Assembly: GCA_964486045.1 (NCBI GenBank)
Contig: CAZALK010000014.1
Coordinates: 1-64,000 of the forward strand
Length of the DNA stretch: 64,000 bases
Origin: an uncultured archaeon
GTDB taxonomy: Archaea > Asgardarchaeota > Lokiarchaeia > Sigyniarchaeales > SOKP01
Reading direction: 5' to 3'
Both the position numbers and the translations under genes were made by a program. Shown one piece after another: positions 34,011 to 51,480 of this stretch (the stretch's first letter is position 1; each line of letters opens with the position of its first letter). The notes under the pieces were generated by a model that was given only the letters and a program-made list of their open reading frames with translations, had not been told where the DNA came from and made no database searches.

Positions 34011-35345
34011 ATGGATACGAGAATAACAGAATTTAAACCAATAAAAATTGTAAGATATGTGCCGGAATTAGACTTATTAAGTAATCCCATTCTTAATGCT
34101 AAAGAAAAGGAGTTCTTAGCTGATTTATATGATTTCATGGAAAAAGAACTTGATCCAGAATTAAAAAAGTTGGAAGATTTAAATTATTTAGTCGAAGTAC
34201 CGACCCAAGATAAAAAGAGAGACATTGTTATAGGCATAATGAAGAAATTGGCTGAAAATGGGTACTATTCTACTATTCTTAATGCTGAAGATTACGAAAT
34301 AGGAAGAATAGTAAGGAATGCGCTTATAGCGTTCGCTATTTGTGGGGGTAGATGGAGTGATTACAGTGAAAGGTATATAGCTGGAAATTATAGCATAGAG
34401 ATGGGAAGGCTATCAGGTGGTACACTTTACTGTAATCCCATAAATTTTGCTTCTGACGAGTCTCAAAAGGAGCAATTCTTAATACCTGTTGCCAAAGATG
34501 GTCAAATCGGTGCTTCAGCAATGACTGAATTTAATGCAGGTTCAGATATCTTTAGGATGGAAATGAGATTTCATGAGAAGGATAACAAAATAATCGTAAA
34601 AGGTAAGAAACTCTTTATAACCAATGGGATGATTGCTGATTACATCGTTGTATATTGAAGATTAGATAATGGACAACTAGGCGCTGTAATCGTTGACACA
34701 GAACATCAAAAGTTAAAGAATTTTCGAAGTACAAGAGTGAGAACGTATGGGATGACAGATGCTTTTGTCAGTCGTTTAATTTTTGATAAGGTAGAACTTC
34801 CAAAAGAAAATATGCTCCACGGACATGGACTTGATATTGCTTTTCACCAATTGACTGAAGAACGTCTAGTTATAAGTGCAGAAGCTCTTGGAGATGCAAT
34901 GAAAAAAATACTTTATTCTCATGCCTATGCTCTACAGCGCATGCAGTTTGAGAAAAGATTACATCAATATCAAGTTATTCGTTTTCCTATTTCTAAAAAG
35001 ATAAGAGAATTAAATTTAATGTTTTCAGCATTAATCCAATATGCTAGACAAATGGATGAACATCCAGAATTAGCAGATTCAAAATTAATGGCAGCTAATG
35101 CAATGGGATTGAAAATTAGCTCTACAGAATTAGGATTCGAAAGTTCCATTCATTGTTTTAGAACTTTAGGAGGACGCGGATTCACACGACAGTATGCTAA
35201 TGAAATTGGGTTATTAGATTCATATTGTATGCTCCACGGAGGAGGATCTAATTATGTTTTAGAAGATAGTGAATCTAGGAGATTCTTTAAATATAAACCT
35301 ACTCGAGGAGAAGTTGAAGATGTTATTCACAAAATTGATTATTAA
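34011..35345 (+). pseudogene. Acyl-CoA dehydrogenase interrupted by one in-frame TGA (34656-34658); pseudogene, sequence error or recoding
   Basis: AMTE..AGSD, GKKLFITNG, YALQRMQF, LGGRGF; the two track ORFs share a frame and the 26 codons between them are open. Confidence 0.8.
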
Positions 35346-37182: not shown

Positions 37183-38874
37183 ATGGAAATGAATGAATTA
37201 GTCGAAAAGTTATTCGATCAGAAATGGAATTATAAAAATCGCAACAATATAATTAATAGATTACAAGAAAATTACTATGATATTATGGTAATAGGTGCGG
37301 GTATTACTGGGGCAGGAGTTGCTAGAGAAGCAGCATTACGAGGATTAAAAGTTGCTTGTGTGGATATGCAAGACTTTGCTGCTGGTACCTCTTCAAGAAG
37401 TTCAAAAATGGCACACGGGGGTTTAAGATATCTTACTTATGGTGAAATAGATTTAGTGAAAGATGCTACTCAAGAAAGAAATTGGATGCGAGTTCACATT
37501 CCACATTTAGTAAGACCACTTCCCTTTTTAATCCTATTTAAAAAGGAAGGAACATATAAAAAGCGCGTAATACAATCTGCAGTAAAGATTTATGATTTTT
37601 TGGGTGAAAATAATTCAGAATTTAAAAACTTTAAACCATTTAAAGAATACTCCCCTGAGGGAATTTCTGAAATAGAACCTACTTATTTAAATGAAGGAAT
37701 TTTAGGAGGTTATGTGTATTACGATACAAACATAGATGACGCACGACTAACAATTGAGATTTTAAAAGAAGCAATAGTTAGAGGAGCAGATATAGTAAAT
37801 TACTGCAAAGTTATAGACTATACTAATGAAAATGGAAAAGTAAATGGAGTTATTTGTAAAGATTTAGAAAAAGATTTTCAATTTGAAATTAAAGCAAAAT
37901 TAGTTGTTAATGCTACTGGTGTTTGGACAGATCAATTGTTAGTTAATTATCCTGATGATATTCCAAAACCTTTAATTAGACCTACTAAGGGTGTCCATAT
38001 TCAAATTAGACGAGAATGCATAAAAAATAACTTTGCTGTGGTTTTAAGCTCAGTTGATGATAACCGTATTTTTTTTGTCATCCCCCGTAATGAAGATTTT
38101 ACAATAATTGGTACAACTGATACGGATTACCAAGGTGATTTAGCTAATCCTTTCTGTAATAAAGATGATGCTGATTATCTAATTAAATCGACTAAACATT
38201 ATTTTCCAGATGCAAATCTAAGTTATGAAAACATACTTTCAACTTACGCTGGAATAAGACCCCTAGTAAGGCAAAAAGGAAAATTGGAGAGTGAAGTTTC
38301 AAGATCACATATTGTTTTTTTTTCTGATGATGGATTGTTAACAATTACAGGAGGAAAACTGACAGAATGGCGATCCATGGCTGAAAATTTGTTTGAAAAA
38401 ATTAATGAGAAAAAAATTTTAGGGGAGATAAAACGGGAGAAAAATTTTTCAAGAAAAAAATTTATCATTACTTTAGAAAAAGAAGAATGGTTAAATGAAT
38501 TAAAAAACTCAGGAGTTATGATACTTGAAAGCATTGCTGATCACTTATATCAACAATATGGAAAAGGAGCCATAAAGATTCTTGAAATTCTGCAAGAGGA
38601 TGAAACTTTAAAAGAAAAAATTATTGAAGAAAATAACTTCATTAAAGCAGAAATCATCTATTGTCTAAGAAACGAATTAACACCACATCTGATTGATGTT
38701 TTTTGTCGTCGAACTGAAATGTTTCTCTGGATAACTCCGAATTCCGTGCTTGAAGCTACAGAGAAAGTAGCTAAACTTATGGAAAAGGAATACTCCTGGA
38801 CTGAGGATAAAAAGAATCAGGAAATTGAAACTTATCTTGAATACAATAAAAAAACTCTTGAATTTCTACTCTAA
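37183..38874 (+). CDS. glpD: FAD-dependent glycerol-3-phosphate dehydrogenase/oxidase
   Basis: IGAGITG, GTSSRSSKMAHGGLRYL, DDARL, GTTDT, TGGKLT. Confidence 0.93.
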   Translation: MEMNELVEKLFDQKWNYKNRNNIINRLQENYYDIMVIGAGITGAGVAREAALRGLKVACVDMQDFAAGTSSRSSKMAHGGLRYLTYGEIDLVKDATQERNWMRVHIPHLVRPLPFLILFKKEGTYKKRVIQSAVKIYDFLGENNSEFKNFKPFKEYSPEGISEIEPTYLNEGILGGYVYYDTNIDDARLTIEILKEAIVRGADIVNYCKVIDYTNENGKVNGVICKDLEKDFQFEIKAKLVVNATGVWTDQLLVNYPDDIPKPLIRPTKGVHIQIRRECIKNNFAVVLSSVDDNRIFFVIPRNEDFTIIGTTDTDYQGDLANPFCNKDDADYLIKSTKHYFPDANLSYENILSTYAGIRPLVRQKGKLESEVSRSHIVFFSDDGLLTITGGKLTEWRSMAENLFEKINEKKILGEIKREKNFSRKKFIITLEKEEWLNELKNSGVMILESIADHLYQQYGKGAIKILEILQEDETLKEKIIEENNFIKAEIIYCLRNELTPHLIDVFCRRTEMFLWITPNSVLEATEKVAKLMEKEYSWTEDKKNQEIETYLEYNKKTLEFLL

Positions 38875-41800
38875 ATTTTAACTGAAATTAAATAATTCAA
38901 AATTTCTCGAATTACACTATACTTAAAAGGAATATCTTTTATTTTTGATAACGATTGAATGCTAGCATGTTGATTAATACTAAGTTGATTTAAAATCTCT
39001 TTTATTAAAAAAATAAGATCTTTAAAATAAGATGTTAAAGCTTGATAGAAATTATGATCTTTTTTCTTGTCTAGAAGCCAATTCATTAGAAGAATATCAT
39101 TATTTCTGAAATATACTTTTAACTGGTTAATTATAAAAGAGTTTTTTACCTTCACAGAAAAATTAAAAAGTTTATCATACAAGACACCACATATAATATT
39201 TCTCAGTTTTCTTGGAAAAGAATTAATTTGATTAGTACCCTTGTAAAGAGTAATACTTGTGATTTTATTTCTCTCAAAAAAATTATTAGAACCAATCACT
39301 TTTTGTTCTCCCAAATATTGTATTATATACTTCTTTATTGTCTCCTTATCTGGAATAACATTATTACCAATATCTCTTAAATATTCTCTTATTCTAGATA
39401 GATTTCCTAACTTTTTATATAAATAAACATAAAATTTTGCTTTCTCACTTTCATAAGTAGTGTATCGATAAACTAAAGCTTCTGAAATTGCTCTATCAAT
39501 CATATTATCTGTGATCTTTTCTAGGAAAGGATATCCAAATAGATTTTTAATATCATTTCTTAAAAATTCAGTTTCACACCAAACCTTTAGCAGATCTGCA
39601 TTTTTTTTTGTGTACTTGAATATCATTTCATTATTTTTGTTCTTCCATATATTAATTTGATGTTCCATTAATTCCACTATATCTTTACCTAAACTTAGAT
39701 AGATCAATTGACATCCTAAAAAAATTCGTCTTTTTCGTTCAGTTATTTTTTGAGGCTTTATTTTATTAAAAAATTCCTTAATTTGAGACTTACTTGAAAT
39801 ATAAACTTGATATTCCGGATTTCCATTTTCCTTATTAGATTTTATGATATTTCCAGTCTTTATACCTAAAATTGAACACATTTGAATGAAATCTTTGCAA
39901 AGAGGTAGAGAACTATTCGAAAATGCTAAGTTTAGAGTATTTCTATTCTTGATAACAGAAATACTTCCATCAGTATCAAACAAACCTCTCAAAGAAGAAA
40001 TTAAAAAAACTTTGCCTTCAGATTTATCAAAATAAACCCAATCAGGAACGTCTACTTCATTTTTAACTTTATTTCCTGGAATTAATCCTTTCTTTTGAAT
40101 TGATTTTCCTAATTCATAAATTGCATAATGTACCGACTTTCTTTGTGAAATAAGTACAACAGATTTTGGAGAAAGCTTGTGATTGAAATATTCAACAAAA
40201 TTAGAATTTTTTTTGAATAATTTATCAATAATCTCGTGTTTAACATATTTAACATAATCAGGGTCATCAATAATATTGAGTGCAATAGTTGTACTACTTC
40301 CGTTTTTATCGAGATGTCCATCTCCGAGCATTATTGATATGAATTCTGCTGATATTTCGGTTCTTTCTATTGGTATATATTTATCTTGTCCAATATAAAC
40401 ATCATGAGGGATAAAGTCTTGGTTAAATATTTTTTTTAATGTATCTTCTCCAACTAAATTATTCAATTTAAAAAAATTCTCTTCTTTCATGCGACGACCT
40501 TTAGATATTTTGGAAAAATCTTGACCAATAATTTTATTAATTTCCTTGACTCTAATATTTCGATCTTTCAAGATTTCTCTAATCTTACTTAGTACTGAAG
40601 TCTTAACTTTAATCCATTTAGTAGGTAGAACATAAATTTTCTCACCATTGTTAAGAAATCTGTTCTTCTCTTCAGAATCTTTGTATTCTGCTAAATTAGA
40701 AACTATCTCATCTTGACTTATCAATTTTTGGTTTAAAATCTTTTTAGGTTCAATAATATCATATAATCCATTTTTCACATTAGTTTGTAAAACTTGATTA
40801 AAACTTTCTCCTATTAATGAATCAAGTTCTCCAATAGATAGCTTTTTTAATAATAATTTAAGTCTGGATTTATCTTCTTCATTATCTTGTTTTTTTTGAA
40901 TAATTTCAATAATTTTAGATTTCTCATTCATGGTTAATTCTGTAGTTTTATATAAATTCTCCCTTAAAATCTCCTTTAAATTTTGAATTGAAGAAATTTC
41001 TCCATTTAAAATTTGATGGATTGCCTTCTCTTTCTTGATAATTTCTAATTTTTGAGACAAACACTTGACAATCTTGTTTCCTTCCAAGATTAAACTTTGT
41101 TCCATCCAATTTCTACTATAATTTTCATAAATACCAAGAAATCTTTTTAAAATTTCAAATAGTTCAAAAAATCTCGGATCATATTTCTCAATACGTCCTT
41201 GTATGAGTTTTTCCTTATCGTCTTTCAAAATTTTTTTGTTAAATAGGATGGTTCTAATTTCACAATACGTTTTTATTACAGTTTCTAATTCCTCTTTAAC
41301 CTCTTTAGATATTTCCTTGTTCGAAACCTTATGAATAAGATTATTTAGTAAAAGTGCCCATTTTTCTCTTATTTGAAAGGACTTCTCTAGGAATTCTTCA
41401 AATTTTTCAGTATTCTCAGGTGATTTGTCTAGATTTTTTAATTGTTCTGTTCTTCTAGAAATATATGATAAAAACTCTCTGGTTTTTTTTGAAATGTAAA
41501 GATTAGCTACTCTTTTTCCAGATGTTCTAATTATTTCGTTATAATACCTGCGAAACCAATCAAAATTCATAAATAATGGTCTAGCAATATAACTTTTCTC
41601 AATTAATATGTGCTCAAATTTATTTACTTCTTCTTCAAACTCCTCTTCTGAAATTTCTTTAGTTTTTAATTTTTCAAGCAATTCTCTGAGAGTCACATAT
41701 TTCTCAAGGAATTTAATAAGTTTTTCCTTACCATCTTTTGGGAACTCTGATTTTTTAATGCTATTTGCTAAATATTGCGCCCATTCTTCATTAAATTCTC

Positions 41801-43136
41801 GAATTTCTTTTGATTGTTCTTTAGTTTCTTTTTCATTCTTATGTAATGATATTTTTTTTTCTTCTTGATCTTCTTTCTGTTGTTTTAAATACTTCTTCCA
41901 GTTAATAAATCCTTTAGTTTCTTTTCCTGCATATACCGGTCTTCTTCCTGTCTCTTGTTTATATTGTTCTTTAATTTCACTCTCTTTTAAAATCTGATGA
42001 GCTTCTTGAATAGACTTTTGTTCGATCTCTTGGTTTTGCTCTTGGGGTTGTTCTTTTTCTTGAGTAATTTCTCGCTTATTTTCTTGGATTCTTTTCTGTG
42101 AAGATTCTTTTGCCTTTTCTTCCTCATCCTGTTCTCTAATTGATTCAATTTTCTTAATATTATTTTTTCTGGGTGTTTGTGAAATTTCTTTTTGGCTCTT
42201 ATACGAAGGCTCTTGACTTAATTTTTGTTCTTGAGTTTGTTCTATTTTATGATTTGTCTTATCTTCTTCTTGCTCTTGAACTTTTTCTTGTTCCGAATCA
42301 TGTGAAGTTGTTAAAACCTGTTCTTGTTCTAAACCACGTTCTTCATAACTATTAAAGAGTTTTTCCATTTCTTCTTCCAATATTTCCACTTCCATTTCAT
42401 CTTGAGAAGACACATGCTCACCAAAAAATTCCATTGTCTCTGCATCTAAAATAATATTCCCCTCTTTGTCTCTTGAAAATGGTTCTTGGGACTCTTGCTG
42501 GAGGATTAATGTACTTTGGTCTGTTCCTATATTCTCTGTTTCTACACTTGAATTTATTTCTTCCACGTCTTCTTCTGAGTTTTTCTCTTCTCCCCTTAGT
42601 TCCTCATGAACTTCATCTCCTATCTCATCTGGATATTCATCGTGTGGACCTTCATTTGTATGTTCGTCGGGATTCTCATCTAAATACTCATCAAAGGGAT
42701 CGTCATTTGGCTGTGTATTAGGATCCTCATCTGGGTATTCATCAAAGGGATCATCATTTGGTTGTGTATTAGGATCCTCATCTGGGTATTCATCAAAGGG
42801 ATCATCATTTGGCTGTGTGTTAGGATCCTCGTCAGGAAATTCATCAAAGGGATCATCATTAGGTTTTGCGGTAGGATCCTCATCAGGATATTCATCAAAG
42901 GGATCGTCATTAGGTTTTACGGTAGGATCCTCATCAGGATATTCATCAAAGGGATCGTTATTTGGCTGTGTGTTAGGATCCTCATCAGGATATTCATCAA
43001 AGGGATCATCATTTGATAGTTCGCCAGGATCTTCATCTGGTTGTTCATTTGAAATTTCATCTGGTACATCGTTTGGATCACCCTCAGGGATTTCACCACC
43101 GGTGTCGTCACCATATTCACTACCTCCCTCAGACAT
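38871..43136 (-). CDS. Large multidomain protein: acidic repeats, Q/E/K-rich linker, helical trunk, tandem LAGLIDADG endonuclease-like domain
   Basis: AEFISIMLGDGHL (~40350-40312) and SLRGLFDTDGSI (~39996-39961), followed by LAFSNSS; no intein splicing motifs recognised. Confidence 0.8.
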   Translation of the reverse strand: MSEGGSEYGDDTGGEIPEGDPNDVPDEISNEQPDEDPGELSNDDPFDEYPDEDPNTQPNNDPFDEYPDEDPTVKPNDDPFDEYPDEDPTAKPNDDPFDEFPDEDPNTQPNDDPFDEYPDEDPNTQPNDDPFDEYPDEDPNTQPNDDPFDEYLDENPDEHTNEGPHDEYPDEIGDEVHEELRGEEKNSEEDVEEINSSVETENIGTDQSTLILQQESQEPFSRDKEGNIILDAETMEFFGEHVSSQDEMEVEILEEEMEKLFNSYEERGLEQEQVLTTSHDSEQEKVQEQEEDKTNHKIEQTQEQKLSQEPSYKSQKEISQTPRKNNIKKIESIREQDEEEKAKESSQKRIQENKREITQEKEQPQEQNQEIEQKSIQEAHQILKESEIKEQYKQETGRRPVYAGKETKGFINWKKYLKQQKEDQEEKKISLHKNEKETKEQSKEIREFNEEWAQYLANSIKKSEFPKDGKEKLIKFLEKYVTLRELLEKLKTKEISEEEFEEEVNKFEHILIEKSYIARPLFMNFDWFRRYYNEIIRTSGKRVANLYISKKTREFLSYISRRTEQLKNLDKSPENTEKFEEFLEKSFQIREKWALLLNNLIHKVSNKEISKEVKEELETVIKTYCEIRTILFNKKILKDDKEKLIQGRIEKYDPRFFELFEILKRFLGIYENYSRNWMEQSLILEGNKIVKCLSQKLEIIKKEKAIHQILNGEISSIQNLKEILRENLYKTTELTMNEKSKIIEIIQKKQDNEEDKSRLKLLLKKLSIGELDSLIGESFNQVLQTNVKNGLYDIIEPKKILNQKLISQDEIVSNLAEYKDSEEKNRFLNNGEKIYVLPTKWIKVKTSVLSKIREILKDRNIRVKEINKIIGQDFSKISKGRRMKEENFFKLNNLVGEDTLKKIFNQDFIPHDVYIGQDKYIPIERTEISAEFISIMLGDGHLDKNGSSTTIALNIIDDPDYVKYVKHEIIDKLFKKNSNFVEYFNHKLSPKSVVLISQRKSVHYAIYELGKSIQKKGLIPGNKVKNEVDVPDWVYFDKSEGKVFLISSLRGLFDTDGSISVIKNRNTLNLAFSNSSLPLCKDFIQMCSILGIKTGNIIKSNKENGNPEYQVYISSKSQIKEFFNKIKPQKITERKRRIFLGCQLIYLSLGKDIVELMEHQINIWKNKNNEMIFKYTKKNADLLKVWCETEFLRNDIKNLFGYPFLEKITDNMIDRAISEALVYRYTTYESEKAKFYVYLYKKLGNLSRIREYLRDIGNNVIPDKETIKKYIIQYLGEQKVIGSNNFFERNKITSITLYKGTNQINSFPRKLRNIICGVLYDKLFNFSVKVKNSFIINQLKVYFRNNDILLMNWLLDKKKDHNFYQALTSYFKDLIFLIKEILNQLSINQHASIQSLSKIKDIPFKYSVIREILNYLISVKI
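42669..43040 (-). repeat. 51-bp (17-aa) coding tandem repeat, 7 copies, consensus NTQPNDDPFDEYPDEDP
   Basis: TCATCAAAGGGATC recurs every 51 bp on the plus strand. Confidence 0.95.
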
Positions 43137-43153
43137 AAGTAAATCATCTCTAT

Positions 43154-45184
43154 TTAGAAATTACGTTTAACAGATTTAGTATCTTGATCTTCAGATTGCT
43201 TATGGAGATATTCCATAGTATGAATTGAGAATCTACGAGCATTTACTCCGTCAATAACAAGAGCACGCCTACATTTTTGATTAAAAACAGCCTCTTGTTC
43301 TTCTGAATTAAGTCCAAATAGTTGCAGACAACTCATGTCCGTTCTAAACAATATTTTTATATTTGGGAGTTTATAGACTGCTTCAAATAATTTTGAGGGG
43401 AGATGATCGGTGAGCATTAGAGATACACCTCTACTCCTAAATGCCCTTAAAAACGCAGTGAACACAATCTCTAAATGATATTTAGTTACTGTTTCATCAT
43501 CATCAGAATTTTGAGACTGTGGTTTCTCTTGAATTTCACTAATCTCATCTATCATGATCACATTTCTAAGGGTATTTGTTCTCATTTCAGGCATGAGTGT
43601 CCTAATCATTTGAAATATTGCATGAGTTACCAGTCTTTTCCCGTTTTTACTGAATCTTGATAAATCTATAAAAACATTTCGACCCTGTTTCCATTCTTCA
43701 AACCATTGTGGAATCGGTCCTAATTCTAGTATTTTATCGATTGTTGGGGAGGATACCAGTTTGATAACACGATTTTTGATAGCCCTTGTGATATTTGTTT
43801 GATATTTGATGTGGTATGGACGTTTGTCAAACCACTCCAAAAGTTCTGTGAATAGATCCTTTATTTTTTGAGGTGGTGTCCCTTTATTAGAAATATCGCG
43901 AGTTAATACATTTTCCATAATTGTCACAACAACATTTTTTAACCCAAGTGATGCAACTTGATATTCAGCCACTTGTTCACATGTCTCTTCTACATCTTCA
44001 CCCTTAATGAAATATGGAACCCGAAATCTAGGATCTCCTTTTTTTAAAACGATATCAGCATTAAATAACTTATCTTCTGTTTTCTTCACTAGATTGATTG
44101 TAAGAATCCCTACTTCAGGAGCTTTAATTTTAAATTCTTCAAGAATGTGAGCTAAAAATCTTGACTTCCCCACTCCAGATAAACCTGAGATAAATAAGTG
44201 GTGCACAAAATCTTCTAAACGAAAATATGCCTTTCTGTGAGTTTTGACACCATTACGGTATATATTTCCAAGTAAAATTAGTCTTTCATTTTCTGGTGTA
44301 AGAAATGAAAAGCTAATATTTTCTTTGGGAATAACATTTGCCTTTTCAATTGGCATATTACTAGGAATATTAAAATCAATTATATCCGGGTTTATAAAAC
44401 CAGGTCTATCTTCCTCGGGTATGTCCTCTAATATACTTCTATAAAATCTACCAGTATTTTTATTTAAAAGGTTTTTATAAAAAGGTCTTGCTTTTAATAT
44501 TTTACTCCAAGTATCAGAGGGTACATGTTTGAGATAAGCTCGTTCCCCATAAGCATTTTTTATGTTAGTAGTTAGATATTTTAAATAATAATTTAACTCT
44601 ACGCCTTTCAAATTACTTTCGGAGGAAATCACGTTATGTGATTTTGCACCCAAAAAGATTTTTATCTTATAATTCCGATCAGTTTCTAATTCACTTTCCA
44701 ATTCTGTCCCTTTAATTGACTTTATCAGTGAATCATCTTTTTGCCATAGAATATAAACTTGAATTACATCATTTTTATTGATATTGAACAGATTAATGAT
44801 TTTCTTTAACAGAAATATTTTTCCTTCAAATCGTGGCGGAGGGATCACAATTTCATAAATTGGATCTTCCTTGTTTAATTCCTCGAATGTGATTGGCTTT
44901 ACGCTAACTTGTCCATTTATGCCTGGATAAATTTCCATTAGATATGCCATCAGACAGTTACCATCTATTAATGCTTCTTCCTCTGTTTCTGCCTTTAAAA
45001 AAAATTTCCAATTGAAGATTTCATCACTGATTAAAAATTTTGCCCCATATACACGATTATCACCAAAAGGATTACATAACCATGAATTGTTTAGAATTTC
45101 TTCATTAAGTTTTCTTTCTACTTTGGGAATTTGTGTTATATTAATAATAGCCTGCCAAAATTCTGGTTCTAAAACAAAAAACAC
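43154..45184 (-). CDS. HerA/FtsK/VirB4-superfamily ATPase (DUF87-like)
   Basis: HLFISGLSGVGKS Walker A, VFIDLS, VIMIDE Walker B, RAFRSRGV arginine-finger region. Confidence 0.85.
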   Translation of the reverse strand: MFFVLEPEFWQAIINITQIPKVERKLNEEILNNSWLCNPFGDNRVYGAKFLISDEIFNWKFFLKAETEEEALIDGNCLMAYLMEIYPGINGQVSVKPITFEELNKEDPIYEIVIPPPRFEGKIFLLKKIINLFNINKNDVIQVYILWQKDDSLIKSIKGTELESELETDRNYKIKIFLGAKSHNVISSESNLKGVELNYYLKYLTTNIKNAYGERAYLKHVPSDTWSKILKARPFYKNLLNKNTGRFYRSILEDIPEEDRPGFINPDIIDFNIPSNMPIEKANVIPKENISFSFLTPENERLILLGNIYRNGVKTHRKAYFRLEDFVHHLFISGLSGVGKSRFLAHILEEFKIKAPEVGILTINLVKKTEDKLFNADIVLKKGDPRFRVPYFIKGEDVEETCEQVAEYQVASLGLKNVVVTIMENVLTRDISNKGTPPQKIKDLFTELLEWFDKRPYHIKYQTNITRAIKNRVIKLVSSPTIDKILELGPIPQWFEEWKQGRNVFIDLSRFSKNGKRLVTHAIFQMIRTLMPEMRTNTLRNVIMIDEISEIQEKPQSQNSDDDETVTKYHLEIVFTAFLRAFRSRGVSLMLTDHLPSKLFEAVYKLPNIKILFRTDMSCLQLFGLNSEEQEAVFNQKCRRALVIDGVNARRFSIHTMEYLHKQSEDQDTKSVKRNF

Positions 45185-45500
45185 CTCATAAATTTTTTTA
45201 ATAGATCATCTAAATATCACTATATATAAACAAAAAAGATGAAATTATCAGATTAGGATTTTTTATTTCAAGAAATCTCCCCTCTTTTTATTAAATTCAG
45301 AAGGTGGGGCTTAACAAAACCTACTTATTAAAAATTATTCACGAATTCCTAGCAGTTTGATTTAATAGATATTTACTAGGGATTAGATTAACAATTTTAA
45401 TAATTGTTAGATTATATTCTCAACATTAAAAATAACAAATCGAACTATTCATAGGTTTATTAATATATGACTTAAATTTTATAATAATGAAGAAAAAAAG

Positions 45501-47096
45501 ATGAAATCAAAAGCGAAAGCAAAATCAACAATTTTAATCACCTTAGGAATCCTCTTCACCTTCTCACCTACAATAAACAAAAGTTTCAATTTTAATGCAG
45601 GAAATAGTGATAACAGTATGGATTATAACAATGATTTTAAATTAGATAATAAAAATCTAAAAATCTCAGCAGTTTCTGGAAAAATTCATATTGATAACAA
45701 TTGGTCTGCTGCCAAGATTGCGGGAATTTCTACTGGGAATGGCATTTATTCCGACCCTTATGTTATTGAAGATTTGATAATAGATGGTGGAGGTTCGGGA
45801 AATGCCATCTTGGTTGAAAATTCCAACGATTATTTTATCATAAATAATTGTACACTTTACAATGCTGACGTAGGCATAAAATTAATAAATGTCATGAATG
45901 GAGCAATAAAGAATTCCACCATTACAAATAATTTAGGGTTTGGTGCTGATCTTGATCAGAGCTCATACAATTTAATTACCAAAAGTGTTTTTGAATCCAA
46001 TTATTTAGCCGGTATCCGGTTAGATCAGAACACTAACTTTAATGAAATTTTAAATAACAGCTTCATAGATGATTATATGAAATTTAGTAAAAATAACGAT
46101 AATAATACCGTAAAAAATAATAGATTATACGGAGGGAGCATTATTTTTGGTGACCAGTGTGATGGAAATACCATTGAAGGAAATTATATAAAAGATAAAG
46201 GTACAAGCACCGAGGCATCTATCGTGTTAGATTCTCAAAACCATTTTAATATGATACAGAATAATATTATACAGAATGGGTCAGGGATAATATTAGGAGG
46301 TCTTGCCTCTGGGAATAATACAATTATCAATAATACCTCAAGTTTTAATGATTATGGTATTCATATGATTAATATATTCTCAAATCGAAGATCAGATAAT
46401 CTTGTCATAAATAATACATTTCAGAATAATAATTACGGAATACGTGTAGCATTTGCTTCTCATAATAATATTACGGGTAACTTTATGAAAGATAATAATC
46501 TTGGAATAGAGATGTACAATGCTGAGAACAATTCAATTTATCTCAATATATTTAATAATCCTACGAATGCCATTGGGTTTGAAAATAACAAATGGGACAA
46601 TGGTTCAGTTGGAAATTATTGGCGTGATTATATGGGTAAAGATATAAATGATGATGGCATTGGCGATATCCCATATAATATATCAATGTCAGCAGGAAGT
46701 CAAGATAATTATCCCATTTGGTGGGACGGACCAGTAATTTCAATTAATGAACCTTATCAATATGAGATATTTACATCAAATGCCCCAAATTTCAATATTT
46801 CTATAAATGAAGGAGTACCAGATACTCTGTGGTATACTATAGATAGTGGATTAACAAATTATACCTGTTCTGCAACTGGTTCAATTGATTCTGATACATG
46901 GGCTACTTTACCAGAAGGAGAGATTACTATAACCTTTTATGCCCAGGATGAAGTAGGATATATCGGTTTTCAAAGCGTAACTGTTATAAAAAGAATTACA
47001 TCTCAAATAACGATTCATGGTTATAATCTATTCTTTCTGTTTGGCATATTATCGGTTGTAGTAATCCTCATAAGTCAAAAACTGAAGAAATCTTAA
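45501..47096 (+). CDS. Cell-surface right-handed beta-helix (NosD/CASH) protein with Loki-CTERM-like anchor
   Basis: Signal-like N-terminus, GNG.YSDPYVIE, Asn-ladder repeats, GNYWRDY...DDGIGDIPY, C-terminal IHGY-TM-KK. Confidence 0.85.
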   Translation: MKSKAKAKSTILITLGILFTFSPTINKSFNFNAGNSDNSMDYNNDFKLDNKNLKISAVSGKIHIDNNWSAAKIAGISTGNGIYSDPYVIEDLIIDGGGSGNAILVENSNDYFIINNCTLYNADVGIKLINVMNGAIKNSTITNNLGFGADLDQSSYNLITKSVFESNYLAGIRLDQNTNFNEILNNSFIDDYMKFSKNNDNNTVKNNRLYGGSIIFGDQCDGNTIEGNYIKDKGTSTEASIVLDSQNHFNMIQNNIIQNGSGIILGGLASGNNTIINNTSSFNDYGIHMINIFSNRRSDNLVINNTFQNNNYGIRVAFASHNNITGNFMKDNNLGIEMYNAENNSIYLNIFNNPTNAIGFENNKWDNGSVGNYWRDYMGKDINDDGIGDIPYNISMSAGSQDNYPIWWDGPVISINEPYQYEIFTSNAPNFNISINEGVPDTLWYTIDSGLTNYTCSATGSIDSDTWATLPEGEITITFYAQDEVGYIGFQSVTVIKRITSQITIHGYNLFFLFGILSVVVILISQKLKKS

Positions 47097-47217
47097 TTGA
47101 TACATTCTACTCCATCAAGGTTTATTTTTTAAGATGAGAATTTTTTATAATACTAATATACTCTACAATTTTATCTAAGTAATTTAAACAAACCAAATAT
47201 TCAACACGATTAAAATT

Positions 47218-50200
47218 TCATTTATCTTGTATATTAGAGATTCTCAGGGTATTTACATATATTTTATCGTAAAAATCAGATAATAATTCATATAAATCAT
47301 TAGCTCTCTTCTCAACATCATCTCGCTTAGAAAAAATCTGTTTAGACTTTTTATAATAAACTTTCATCTCATTTATAGTAAAAGGAATTAATTTGTAATC
47401 TACTAAATATTCATAAAAGATTTCAGGTTTCTCAAGTTCAGATGTAGGTATATCGCTGATCTTGAGGTAAGATTGATGAAGATTTATTATAAAGTCTCTT
47501 ACTAGGGTTTCTCCGATTTTGAGAGACTTTTCAAACTCATTTCCTATAAGACACTCATAAATCAGAAATAATTCCCGAATCATTTTAGAGTTTTGCTTAT
47601 TTATTATCTTTTGAAATTTCTGTTTATCGATAATGTACTTATTGTCTTGTTCCAGAAATAAACCTAACATTTCAGATTTATTCTCACTGTTTTGTTCTAT
47701 AGCATCAACAGAAATATCTGATAAAGTATCCCCCTTGACACTAAAATAATCTTGTAACGCATCTTTATATTTTGATCCAACGGTATAAGATGTTCTTATG
47801 GATTCAGAACCACTTGCCCTATTTGGATGAGCTTCGATTAAGTAACCATGTTTAACTATCATGTCGAATATCTCGTCTCTTATTTCTTTAATTTGAGCTT
47901 TGTCTTGAACTTTTTTGGAAGCTTTTGAACTAATATAATTTAAAAGCTCACTTTTTACTTTACTTTTATATAAGTTTCCAATTTTATCAACTGTTTTTAA
48001 AGCACTGAGGAAATTTATAATTTCTTCGATAAAATCGGCATAAATTCCAAAATCTTTTTCAAACAGTGTTTTTTTAGTTTTTTCTAACATTTTTTTTTCA
48101 GCAAGTTTAAGTTTATAACCCTGTCTGTCCATATAGGCTATAATTTGTTCTTTAGTGAGAGGAGGAGTGTTATGGAGATTTTTAAACTCAAGTCTTCCTG
48201 GAAACGGTTGATAATTATCAGATCTTTTCACAAGTACTTCTTCATCATGCATACTCATTAAATAATCAATTTGATATGTGTTATTTCGTTTAGAACTATA
48301 GTAACCGGTCCCTTGTAGCTCTTGTAATTTCATTTGATTTTTTAAAACTGCAATATCTCGTGGATCTGTTGCTTGAAGCGATATAATATTGTGAAAATAA
48401 TTAAAAATATGAGGATGAAGATATCGGATTTGGTTTGCAGAAAATACAAACCCAAATCCTTTTTTAAGAAATGGCTCAATGAACTTATCTATTTTTCCAT
48501 AATTTACAGTATTAGAGCTTTTATCAATATAGTATGAATCGAAGAACATATCAACATTAGGAAGAACCATTATTTTTTTATAATAATCTTCCGAACCTTC
48601 GATGTAGTGAATGAATTTAGCTATGATTACAAAAGTTATAAAAGTTTTTTTCTCTAAATCTCTTAAAATGGAAAGGTCAATTATAACGGTCTTATCGTTC
48701 TTTAAAAAATCGATTGGATTGATATCTTCTCCATGTTCAAGGGTATTACTAGAAAATATTTCTCCTTGGTTAGAAAAATCTTTAAACAATGATAATAAAC
48801 TATTAGAAGAGAAAGTTTTCTCCCATTTTTGCTTTAATTGAAGGTTTAACGTAATTGAAGTTAAATCCATCTCGTCATTCTTTAGAATCGTTTCTTTTAG
48901 AACATCAATGTTTTGCTTTTGCTCCTTAAACGCCAAAGCAAATACATCATAGAACAAATTTAAATAATTTAGATTATTTTTATCATATTTTATACCTGAG
49001 TGCTGTATTTCAATACTGAAGGAGGTTCCTAATTTGAAATGTAAAAAATTATTGTAATATTGAGAGTTTTCGAAGAAATGAATGAGTTTTGACCAATAAC
49101 CAGAATAATCAAAAATTATAGACGGAATCTTTAATTTAACTAATTCTGATATTACTTTCATCATCGCATGCTCTCGCTAATAGGGTGCCCCATTTGTTAT
49201 TAGCAATTGCTTTATTTGTTCAGATGTAAAACCTAAAGGAACCTCTTCCTCTAAAAATTCCGTATTAATAGTATGACCAATAGTAATAAAATTGTTTAGG
49301 TGTAATGGAGTATTAAACTCAGCAGCAATCCTTGTTTCAACTCCTTTTTTGAATTCATTCACTACTTTAGCGAGGTCAATTAATCTCTTACCTTGAAAAT
49401 AAAGATAATTTAGATGAGTACCACCTAAGCGAAATTCATTATTTTTAAAAACCTCACTCAAAAATCCAGAAATTTGCAGTTTTTTACTAAGACTTATTAA
49501 TTTGAATCTTGAGAAATTATTTTCAAAAGATTTACTTATTATTTTTGAATTCCTATTTACTTCTTTCTCTAATTCAATAAAATCCTCCATTTCAAATCTA
49601 CTTGACAATTTATAAGATGTTGTTGATAACGTTAAAGTTGTCTTCCAGAGTCCTGATCTCATGTCTAGCCAATTATAGAATTCTTCTTTAGGATATTTTA
49701 CGTTTCTGGCATTTTCACCATCAAGGGTGATAAATACAATCCCCTCAAGTGCATCCACAGTATTTTGGTTTAGGTAATTGGCACATTCTTTGCTAAATAA
49801 TCTCCCATAGACCGGAATAGTATTTAGGTTATAAACAAACGGGATTTTATGGCTAATTAATGCTCTAAAGAATTTATCTGAATAAATTTCACTTGGATAA
49901 CGACTCGCAGTTCTAAGGTTAAACATCTTCTTAGCTAAAAGTAAATGATCATGAATTAAGATAAAAAGACAGTTAGGAACGCTTAAAAATCTAAACTTCT
50001 TAAAAGGATCGACTAAGTTTAATCCCTTAAGGTGATTAAATCGAGATTTTGAGATAATAAACATTAAATCTCTTCCCCATAATGTTGTAAGAAAAAATCC
50101 TAAAATGAGAGCTATAGCTATTATGAAACCAACATGAACATTAAGCAATATTAATAAAAATGATGTTAATCCGATGATAAATATAAAAAGGAGCGTTTTA

Positions 50201-51114
50201 GGAAAAATTTGTAAGAACTGGCTCTTTGACATAAAATAATTGTCTTCTCCATGATCGATTTTAATAGATTGTTCACAAACAACTGATCTTATAGCGTTGA
50301 TTAAATCATTACCAGCAAGTAATGCAATTTTTGTATGATGAAAATTTACGCTAAAATTTGATTTTAGTTCCATAGAATAATCTTGAACTTGCCCCATCAG
50401 TTCCCGCAATCTAGTTCTAGTTAAAATACCTTTTACAACATGATAGACGCTAAAGTAAATAGAAATTCGATAAGAATTGTTGTTATTATAATTTTTAGTT
50501 TGGTGAGGATTTATATGGATGTCCTGCGCTTCAGGTGAGATTAAAGGAATATTAATAATTGGGTTTTGTACTACTTGGTATGTGTATGGAACCCGGGCTT
50601 GATACAATGCCTTGATAAACTGATTTAATGTAGGTTGTACATTTTCAGGAAGTACTTCAATTTTAAATATATGGGTACCTATTGTTATCACATCTTCTTT
50701 ATTCATAATTAATAAAGTGGCAGGGTCATCTTCTGCTATCCAGAATGTAAAGTTCTCAAAAGGGTTTATAACTTTGAAAGATTGAAATATTTTGTTGACT
50801 ATATCTCTAAAATGAAAATGTTTTAAATTAAAAGCCACTGTGAAAAAAACTAATAGAAATGCAGTAAGAATTAATGATGTAGTAATGCTAGTTGTAATGA
50901 TATAAAGCGATATTGAAAAGAATGTAAGAATTATAATTACAAAAACTATCTTTCGAATCCCTCGCTCGATATTGGTGTCTATATATGAAGGAATAACATC
51001 CCATATATCTAAATATTTTTTTTCAGATGATTTCTGCTCCTCTTCAAAAGACATATCTTTTTTATCTTGATCTTGAGATAAATTGCTTCTATCCCTATTT
51101 TTATACATAGTCAT
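47218..51114 (-). pseudogene. Membrane-anchored, degenerate HerA/VirB4-like ATPase (~1298 codons) interrupted by one in-frame TAG at 49179-49177
   Basis: The 645-aa and 648-aa ORFs share a frame and join as LLITNGAPY*REHAMMKVISELVKLKIPSIIFDYSG (Walker-A position, no GKS/T); later VIIDLS and FVFSANQ; two TM hairpins in the N-half. Confidence 0.7.
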
Positions 51115-51228
51115 GGTACTTTTTCCAATAATATACTATTTTTTTAATAACTTCTATTTAAATTTCTATTTAAATAAAAAATTGAAAAAACTCGATTCCA
51201 AAAAAAAGTTTTAAAATTATTTATAAAG

Positions 51229-51372
51229 ATTAGTCATAAAAGAGCTTCTTTAGCAGCAAAAGAGGTTGCTGAATTAATGGCGAAGGAATATTCATGGAGT
51301 GATGATAAAAAAGAAGAAGAAATTGGTGTCTATTTAGATTACATCAAGAAATCTGTTTCATTTATCAAATAA
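51229..51372 (+). pseudogene. Orphan 3' fragment of a glpD homologue
   Basis: ISHKRASLAAKEVAELMAKEYSWSDDKKEEEIGVYLDYIKKSVSFIK* aligns without gaps to the GlpD C-terminus ITPNSVLEATEKVAKLMEKEYSWTEDKKNQEIETYLEYNKKTLEFLL*. Confidence 0.85.
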
Positions 51373-51480
51373 ATACAAATATGTTAATATATAATCATTG
51401 GACTCCCTTTGAAATATATTTTTAAGTTTGTATATACAATATAATAACAAATCTAAATTTATATCTAAGAGTGAAAATAA

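Follow-up and report, generated by a model that had tools for sequence, protein, structure and literature searches.

An apparently mobile 12.4-kb island with a homing-type footprint in the glpD gene of a Lokiarchaeia-type archaeon and its putative DNA-handling module

The window analysed here is a stretch of 64,000 nucleotides of contig CAZALK010000014.1 (assembly GCA_964486045.1) from the genome, hereafter G000, of a Lokiarchaeia-type Asgard archaeon (Promethearchaeia). Between 38.7 and 51.2 kb it contains an island of 12.4 kb, situated at the end of the glpD gene and comprising four genes: gene C, encoding a giant protein with a C-terminal LAGLIDADG module (the tip), gene B, encoding a predicted active ATPase, a NosD-like gene, and gene A, encoding a membrane protein with an ATPase-like C-terminal half. 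A, B and C are all encoded on the minus strand. The NosD-like gene (45501-47096, plus strand) encodes a beta-helix surface protein of 531 amino acids with a signal-like N-terminus and a C-terminal transmembrane segment; it separates A from B and probably does not belong to the module formed by the other three. An earlier interpretation made from the DNA letters (the sequence-only reading) had described a three-gene co-oriented module; the shared orientation was borne out, and the contiguity was not, because of the intervening plus-strand gene. The same reading had missed the horizontally mobile island itself, with its homing-type footprint of a duplicated gene tail, empty sites and defined junctions. 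In what follows, G013 is another genome carrying the insertion, and labels beginning with L denote the loci compared, of which L025 and L026 come from metagenomes.

The target gene, glpD (37183-38874, plus strand; Pfam DAO and DAO_C), encodes a flavin adenine dinucleotide (FAD) glycerol-3-phosphate dehydrogenase. Its last ~47 codons, starting from ~38731, are a substitute tail borne by the island (…TPNS…LEFLL, then stop), which was seen in the carriers only, namely the window, L025/L026 and G013. A relic of the native tail (…ISHKRAS…VSFIK, then stop) lies at the right end of the island, at positions 51214-51375 of the plus strand. A tblastx comparison of this relic with the last 54 glpD codons (38716-38877) gave 46% identity over 54 amino acids (E 6e-11), and the relic resembles the native-type tails of the genomes in which the site is empty. 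Both junctions are located directly after the …SLWI codons, where glpD reads …RRTEM(S/F)LWI, and the native sequence around the junction is conserved in the empty-site genomes and disrupted in the carriers. The empty site was found in 13 genomes of the same genus, where glpD is directly followed by a gene encoding a 224-amino-acid protein. The gap between glpD and the radical-SAM gene is ~815-866 bp in 11 of these 13 genomes, compared to 13.3 kb in the window. The island was inserted after …SLWI, bringing in a substitute glpD tail and pushing the native tail downstream.

The island is much younger than the surrounding chromosome. Measured between the window and L025, synonymous divergence (dS) amounts to 0.21 (B) and 0.18 (C), versus 0.46-1.48 for 13 flanking genes. 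The nucleotide identity of the window to the carriers is ~70% in the body of glpD, which equals the identity to the empty-site genomes, and rises to 85-89% in the last 350 nucleotides. Three carriers stand against 13 empty sites, a presence/absence polymorphism with flanking co-conversion of the kind left by homing endonucleases; the jump in identity in the glpD tail and the low dS of the island support recent movement. From these sequence comparisons, the island appears to have passed between lineages and entered glpD at the same point. The ratio of non-synonymous to synonymous divergence (dN/dS) relative to L025 is 0.18 for B and 0.34 for C; both genes are under purifying selection. As a separate observation, the glpD body (37183-38730) shows a dS of 1.9-2.0 relative to carriers L025 and G013, compared with 0.46-1.03 for 13 neighbouring genes. 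This divergence may represent an older replacement or a conversion tract tied to the homing site.

Elements inserted by integrases typically leave their target gene with a duplicated 3' end, and a short TGGAT(A/T) sequence is common to both junctions. These features would fit an ordinary integrative element that entered by means of a site-specific recombinase lost since, with no part played by the LAGLIDADG protein. Against this, no integrase gene or remnant was found in the three carrier versions, and no recombinase families were found among the island genes; matches to the tyrosine integrase family (PF00589) were located on other contigs of the genome and none on the window contig, and serine recombinases were not searched genome-wide. 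Furthermore, the minimal version, found in G013 at the same glpD site, consists of the tip module, the new tail and the relic only. The tip gene of G013 stands alone and encodes a protein of 657 amino acids with its own winged-helix-like N-terminus; it corresponds to residues 804-1388 of C with 89% identity. Entry by a lost recombinase is judged improbable.

Gene C (38871-43136, minus strand) encodes a protein of 1421 amino acids composed of acidic DPF repeats, a trunk and the LAGLIDADG tip. The gene starts 17 nucleotides past the stop of B, and its end overlaps the glpD stop by 4 nucleotides. Seven 51-nucleotide tandem repeats (42573-43082, minus strand; repeat family D1) encode the acidic N-terminus, where residues 1-200 contain 40% aspartate plus glutamate and seven DPF motifs. 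The trunk (~residues 380-800) is conserved and rich in glutamate and lysine; a feature search with it in a structure atlas gave no usable match. The tip module occupies ~residues 804-1421 (38871-40727, minus strand), with the catalytic two-motif domain at ~39747-40349. The motifs were located at ~932-940 (…LGDG) and 1049-1057 (LRGLFDTDG), both with the catalytic aspartate kept, as in LAGLIDADG homing endonucleases, and the Pfam family LAGLIDADG_3 was matched with E-values of 2.7e-13 for the whole protein and 2.7e-15 for the tip alone. Features that the sequence-only reading had listed for this gene (its length, the acidic N-terminus, the two-motif LAGLIDADG domain, the 17-nucleotide spacing and the overlap with the glpD stop) were found again. 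A comparison of residues 800-1421 with the sequences of the PDB gave no match. An intein was also considered and rejected, since no Hint or intein family was matched by residues 800-1421 even at E-values up to 5, and the Hint splicing domain is lacking.

The trunk is shared by 23 relatives of C with 60-70% identity over ~380-800, beyond which the sequences diverge. Among 28 C-type proteins the tips include DUF4379 treble-clef fingers (six), LAGLIDADG_3 (three) and CapR (two), along with HNH_3, GIY-YIG, Jiv90 and an iron-repressor-type helix-turn-helix (HTH) domain found once each; LAGLIDADG_3 also occurs in L038 and L045, and a TFIIB repeat with an HTH domain in L032. The constant trunk with variable C-terminal nuclease or DNA-binding tips that the sequence-only reading had proposed to look for is indeed present. 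As the domains of the tips belong to nuclease or DNA-binding types, the variable end of C-type proteins is predicted to cut or bind DNA. Three classical families of homing endonucleases are represented: LAGLIDADG, HNH_3 and GIY-YIG enzymes are homing-type and site-specific. Tipped C proteins were also found in lineages carrying B and C away from glpD (L042, L045 and L038), which suggests that the fusion of trunk and tip is old; the form found in G013 is less likely to be ancestral than to have been derived by reduction or rebuilding.

The sequence-only reading had named polymorphic effector delivery among its options, which would mean a secretion or translocation ATPase pair that exports C into competitors as a polymorphic nuclease toxin. 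In its favour, nuclease domains at the C-terminus vary on a trunk that stays constant, and the pairing of a membrane-anchored dead ATPase with a live one recalls EssC-type machines. Effector delivery was nevertheless not upheld. No immunity gene was found downstream of C in any copy examined, where convergent host genes or unrelated genes follow; in the window, C abuts glpD. C contains neither a signal peptide nor a transmembrane segment, nor a known toxin-delivery domain, including at its N-terminus, and no secretion-type domain was found. The tips are of homing-endonuclease and HTH types, with TFIIB among them, and the LAGLIDADG tip goes with insertion at one exact point of the chromosome. 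Toxin export is considered very improbable.

Gene B (43154-45184, minus strand) encodes a protein of 676 amino acids, predicted from its motifs and AlphaFold model (predicted local distance difference test score, pLDDT, 86) to be an active P-loop ATPase of the VirB4/HerA fold. The Walker A (GLSGVGKS, residues 334-341) and Walker B (IMIDE) motifs are both intact, in agreement with the sequence-only reading, and residues G334, G339, K340, D546 and E547 are kept across 27 homologues. As revealed by a Foldseek search, the model matches full-length TrwK/VirB4 (2.6e-15), as well as HerA (4d2i), the VirB4 C-domain (template modelling score, TM-score, 0.69) and the DndH C-domain. The nearest folds over the whole length in the structure atlas are DUF87/TraG/TrwB-type ATPases of Bacillota, Actinomycetota and candidate phyla radiation (CPR) bacteria (TM-score 0.73-0.76). 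By both fold and motifs B belongs to the VirB4/HerA clade of the FtsK-HerA superfamily; its score against Pfam DUF87, 22.1 bits, is below the cut-off of 23.2. No relative of B was found among the viral contigs of IMG/VR and the phage collections, and a single 23% match, in an Exiguobacterium plasmid, was found in the plasmid collections. A predicted complex of B with residues 436-755 of the C trunk received a score of 0.00, which bears neither way.

Defence is the main rival to transfer as the purpose of the module. According to this explanation, a HerA-type ATPase would scaffold a nuclease-tipped effector with a membrane sensor against viruses or plasmids, as in Sir2-HerA, DUF4297-HerA, TdpAB or DndFGH, and the module would ride on or beside a homing endonuclease gene. 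B matches the PADLOC models mad8 (1e-13) and HerA (4e-11), and the best solved matches of the module ATPases include Sir2-HerA, DUF4297-HerA, TdpAB and the DndH C-domain; the patchy, multi-copy and pseudogene-rich spread of the module with exchanged effector tips is also in line with defence. However, the PADLOC search, which covers the known HerA defence systems, gave no hits for A, C, the NosD-like protein and F2, a membrane protein encoded next to B in other copies (see below), and no match at the level of a system. Several of the tips, such as the TFIIB repeat and HTH, merely bind DNA and are not nucleases, the LAGLIDADG, HNH_3 and GIY-YIG tips are homing-type enzymes, and the fold nearest to the whole of B is that of conjugation-type ATPases. 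Defence appears to be a possible explanation, if a rather unlikely one.

Gene A (47218-51114, minus strand) encodes a VirB4/HerA-like protein with four transmembrane segments. Its coordinates and strand were confirmed, and the single open frame of ~1300 codons reported by the sequence-only reading was not: one in-frame TAG at 49177-49179 divides it into open reading frames (ORFs) of 645 and 648 amino acids. In an alignment with the intact paralogue C1:215701-219492 (1263 amino acids) and the intact L022 homologue (1271 amino acids), the TAG falls at a variable position, occupied by Q or S, within the degenerate Walker A stretch. Decoding of the TAG as pyrrolysine was ruled out: neither PylB above the cut-off nor a tRNA with the anticodon CUA was found in the genome. 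Since this machinery is lacking, the TAG is best interpreted as a nonsense change or an assembly error. In the closest relative, L025, A is deleted save for the last ~210 nucleotides; A is decaying in the window, where B and C are kept by selection.

Two hydrophobic hairpins were located in A, at residues 51-100 and 300-354, and no GK[ST] motif was found, as the sequence-only reading had described. In every aligned member of the A family, NG….RE replaces GxxGxGK[ST] and hP.hD.FF replaces hhhhDE, and the whole family is devoid of the Walker A lysine and the Walker B glutamate. The comparison of the A and B profiles by hhalign yielded a probability of 15%, and the profile of the C-terminal half of A found no match among PDB sequences. 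The AlphaFold model of this half in the intact paralogue P0040 (pLDDT 78) matched HerA (4d2i, 4.7e-11), the DndH C-domain (TM-score 0.64) and the VirB4 C-domain (TM-score 0.63), so the P-loop fold, whose absence from the product of 47218-51114 would have spoken against the sequence-only reading, was recovered through the paralogue. The likeness of the modelled fold to HerA and VirB4, combined with the degenerate motifs, indicates that A is in all likelihood a motor-dead member of the same P-loop fold with four transmembrane segments.

The three genes co-occur outside the window, as the sequence-only reading had supposed. A-B-C rows were found in L022, L032, L033 and L045, with a nearly contiguous arrangement in L044, representing five other Promethearchaeia genomes. 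In L022, the proteins of the row comprise 1271 (A), 645 (B) and 1599 (C) amino acids, in L032 1279, 631 and 1673, and in L033 A and C comprise 1260 and 1590; in L044, a 2-kb gap separates A from B-C. In L045, the order is F2-A-B-C, and C again starts with acidic repeats and ends in a LAGLIDADG tip with two motifs. F2 is a polytopic membrane protein of 230-258 amino acids with an HExxH motif and a weak likeness to Peptidase_M50B. Eight full-length paralogues of B (28-39% identity) are encoded in G000, mostly arranged as F2-B-C. The module is restricted to one family of Promethearchaeia, where it is patchy and multi-copy: B is present in 29 of the 68 family genomes and in only 4 of ~230 other genomes of the phylum, with 0-8 copies per genome, many of them broken. 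No hidden copies of B or of the C-terminal half of A were found in the compared loci with hidden Markov models (HMMs). None of A, B, C and F2 has a match in NCBIfam, and PADLOC, NCBIfam, Pfam and the literature searched gave no match to the module as a whole, in keeping with the earlier remark that no described system has this architecture.

The A family consists of two groups. A core copy is found in 16 of 18 genomes of the same genus and also in genomes labelled Thor-, Hel-, Hermod- and Hodarchaeota, in an operon with a membrane protein bearing helix-hairpin-helix (HhH) motifs; a separate clade holds the window copy, and its members lie directly upstream of B. At L016 (G000:C1:212045-219848) an apparent five-gene operon encodes a 712-amino-acid HhH membrane protein, a 219-amino-acid protein with four transmembrane segments, a 287-amino-acid protein with two, A (1263 amino acids) and a 119-amino-acid protein, a homologue of which also precedes A in L022. 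The products of the core operon may form a conserved Asgard membrane DNA-binding complex.

Several further observations concern the neighbourhood and the assembly of module copies. NosD-like and leucine-rich repeat (LRR) surface-protein genes recur beside the copies in L033, L013, L022 and L045. The assembly of G000 is interrupted within the acidic tandem repeat: contigs C28 and C41 end with a B gene followed by the initial acidic repeats of C, and contigs C20 and C31 begin inside C genes. One C gene has its 5' end repeated in inverted orientation 12 kb from the full gene (G000:C1:495015-495485 and 507668-508480), and compared with the related locus L041 the intervening segment is inverted. 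A C-type gene encoding 2437 amino acids is a single gene in one metagenome and is divided into ORFs of 519 and 1929 amino acids in another (L024:2788-10090 and L023:12005-19318), which points to a frameshift or a difference in the assembly of the repeat region.

It is moderately probable that the island is a homing-type mobile element with a putative membrane-linked DNA-handling module as its cargo. In this scheme, the LAGLIDADG tip of C would cut the conserved native glpD site (GARATGTCTCTNTGGATWNNTCATAAA), and repair would then use a carrier, in which the insertion interrupts this site, as the template for copying the island. A or F2 would anchor B, the motor, to the membrane, and C would deliver specific DNA to B. 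The module might then transport or process DNA there, possibly for the element's own transfer. A bolder proposal, that F2/A-B-C represents a new class of archaeal mobile element with a VirB4-like membrane machine for cell-to-cell DNA movement, in which C is both DNA pilot and homing endonuclease and is retargeted by swappable LAGLIDADG, HNH and GIY-YIG tips, is regarded as unlikely.

A number of points weigh against the homing-type interpretation. The NosD-like gene is old, with a dS of 1.15 relative to L025, where its counterpart is shorter (349 amino acids), which makes the island a mosaic. Low dS by itself could also mean recombination, and the moved unit may be the whole island or only the tip and the tail. 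A duplicated target tail was not found at 12 other module loci, this LAGLIDADG lineage being the only one to show it. The weakest step is the suggested role of the module in handling DNA at the membrane, which is proposed from fold likeness and domain content; no other parts of a type IV secretion system were seen, and at its own locus elsewhere in the genome the core copy of A does without B.

To our knowledge, almost no mobile elements or DNA-transfer machinery have been characterised in Asgard archaea. If the present reading holds, the island would be a clear example, open to dating, of an element that entered a protein-coding gene of a Lokiarchaeia-type genome horizontally and at a specific site, with no integrase found. 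It comes together with a conserved gene set not described before, which encodes a motor of the VirB4/HerA type, a pseudo-ATPase and a giant protein. Should homing activity of the tip be confirmed, a cargo island of 12 kb driven by such an enzyme would widen the range of what homing endonucleases are known to mobilise; should the module handle DNA at the membrane, it would be a candidate route of gene exchange in the closest prokaryotic relatives of eukaryotes.

Two other features were recorded outside the island. The acyl-CoA dehydrogenase gene upstream of glpD (34011-35345) is represented by two ORFs of 215 and 202 amino acids, and its syntenic counterpart (L025:17110-18405) is a single gene encoding 431 amino acids; the split is probably due to a frameshift or a broken gene. 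A selenocysteine tRNA (tRNA-SeC, anticodon tca) was predicted in G000 with aragorn. A search of the whole window against Rfam gave no match.

Compared with known systems, the module shares with VirB4/TrwK and VirB3-VirB4 fusions the match of B to full-length TrwK and to the VirB4 C-domain (2.6e-15 and TM-score 0.69, respectively), and its neighbours in the structure atlas are conjugation-type DUF87/TraG/TrwB ATPases, among them those of Bacillota and CPR bacteria. A, with N-terminal transmembrane hairpins followed by the same ATPase fold, likewise resembles VirB3-VirB4-type proteins. In contrast to type IV secretion systems, the A family is devoid of the Walker A lysine and Walker B glutamate, and the partner is a giant nuclease-tipped protein and not a relaxase; no type IV secretion or relaxase families were matched among the neighbours at nine loci (Pfam). 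The pairs of HerA with nucleases (HerA-NurA, Sir2-HerA, DUF4297-HerA, TdpAB and DndFGH) are similar in that an ATPase of the HerA fold adjoins a nuclease-bearing partner, and HerA structures are among the top solved matches of both A and B. They differ from the module, which has membrane components and a partner of 1000-2400 amino acids with swappable tips and is recognised by PADLOC in B only; no NurA, Sir2, DUF4297 or Dnd partner was found, the NurA family being absent among the neighbours.

The homing-type reading is preferred because the footprint in glpD matches that left by free-standing LAGLIDADG and GIY-YIG genes where these adjoin the 3' ends of genes in fungal mitochondria, and because an Asgard precedent exists. 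The latter is HeimM2 of Heimdallarchaeum, a mobile element of 8 kb located between a 16S rRNA gene and a tRNA gene, which carries an LRR protein and a homologue of homing endonucleases proposed to be responsible for site-specific insertion (PMC8813620). HeimM2 is similar to the island as an Asgard element with such a homologue and differs in that no ATPase module or giant protein has been reported for it. In fungal mitochondria, C-terminal duplications of cob and atp6 are found beside LAGLIDADG or GIY-YIG ORFs at the 3' end (PMC6279837). As in those insertions of free-standing homing endonuclease genes, the endonuclease gene of the island abuts its target, which receives a new C-terminus from the element while the old one is left downstream as a relic; in contrast to them, the target here is chromosomal and archaeal, the endonuclease forms the tip of a protein of 1421 amino acids, and the insert reaches 12.4 kb with an ATPase cargo.

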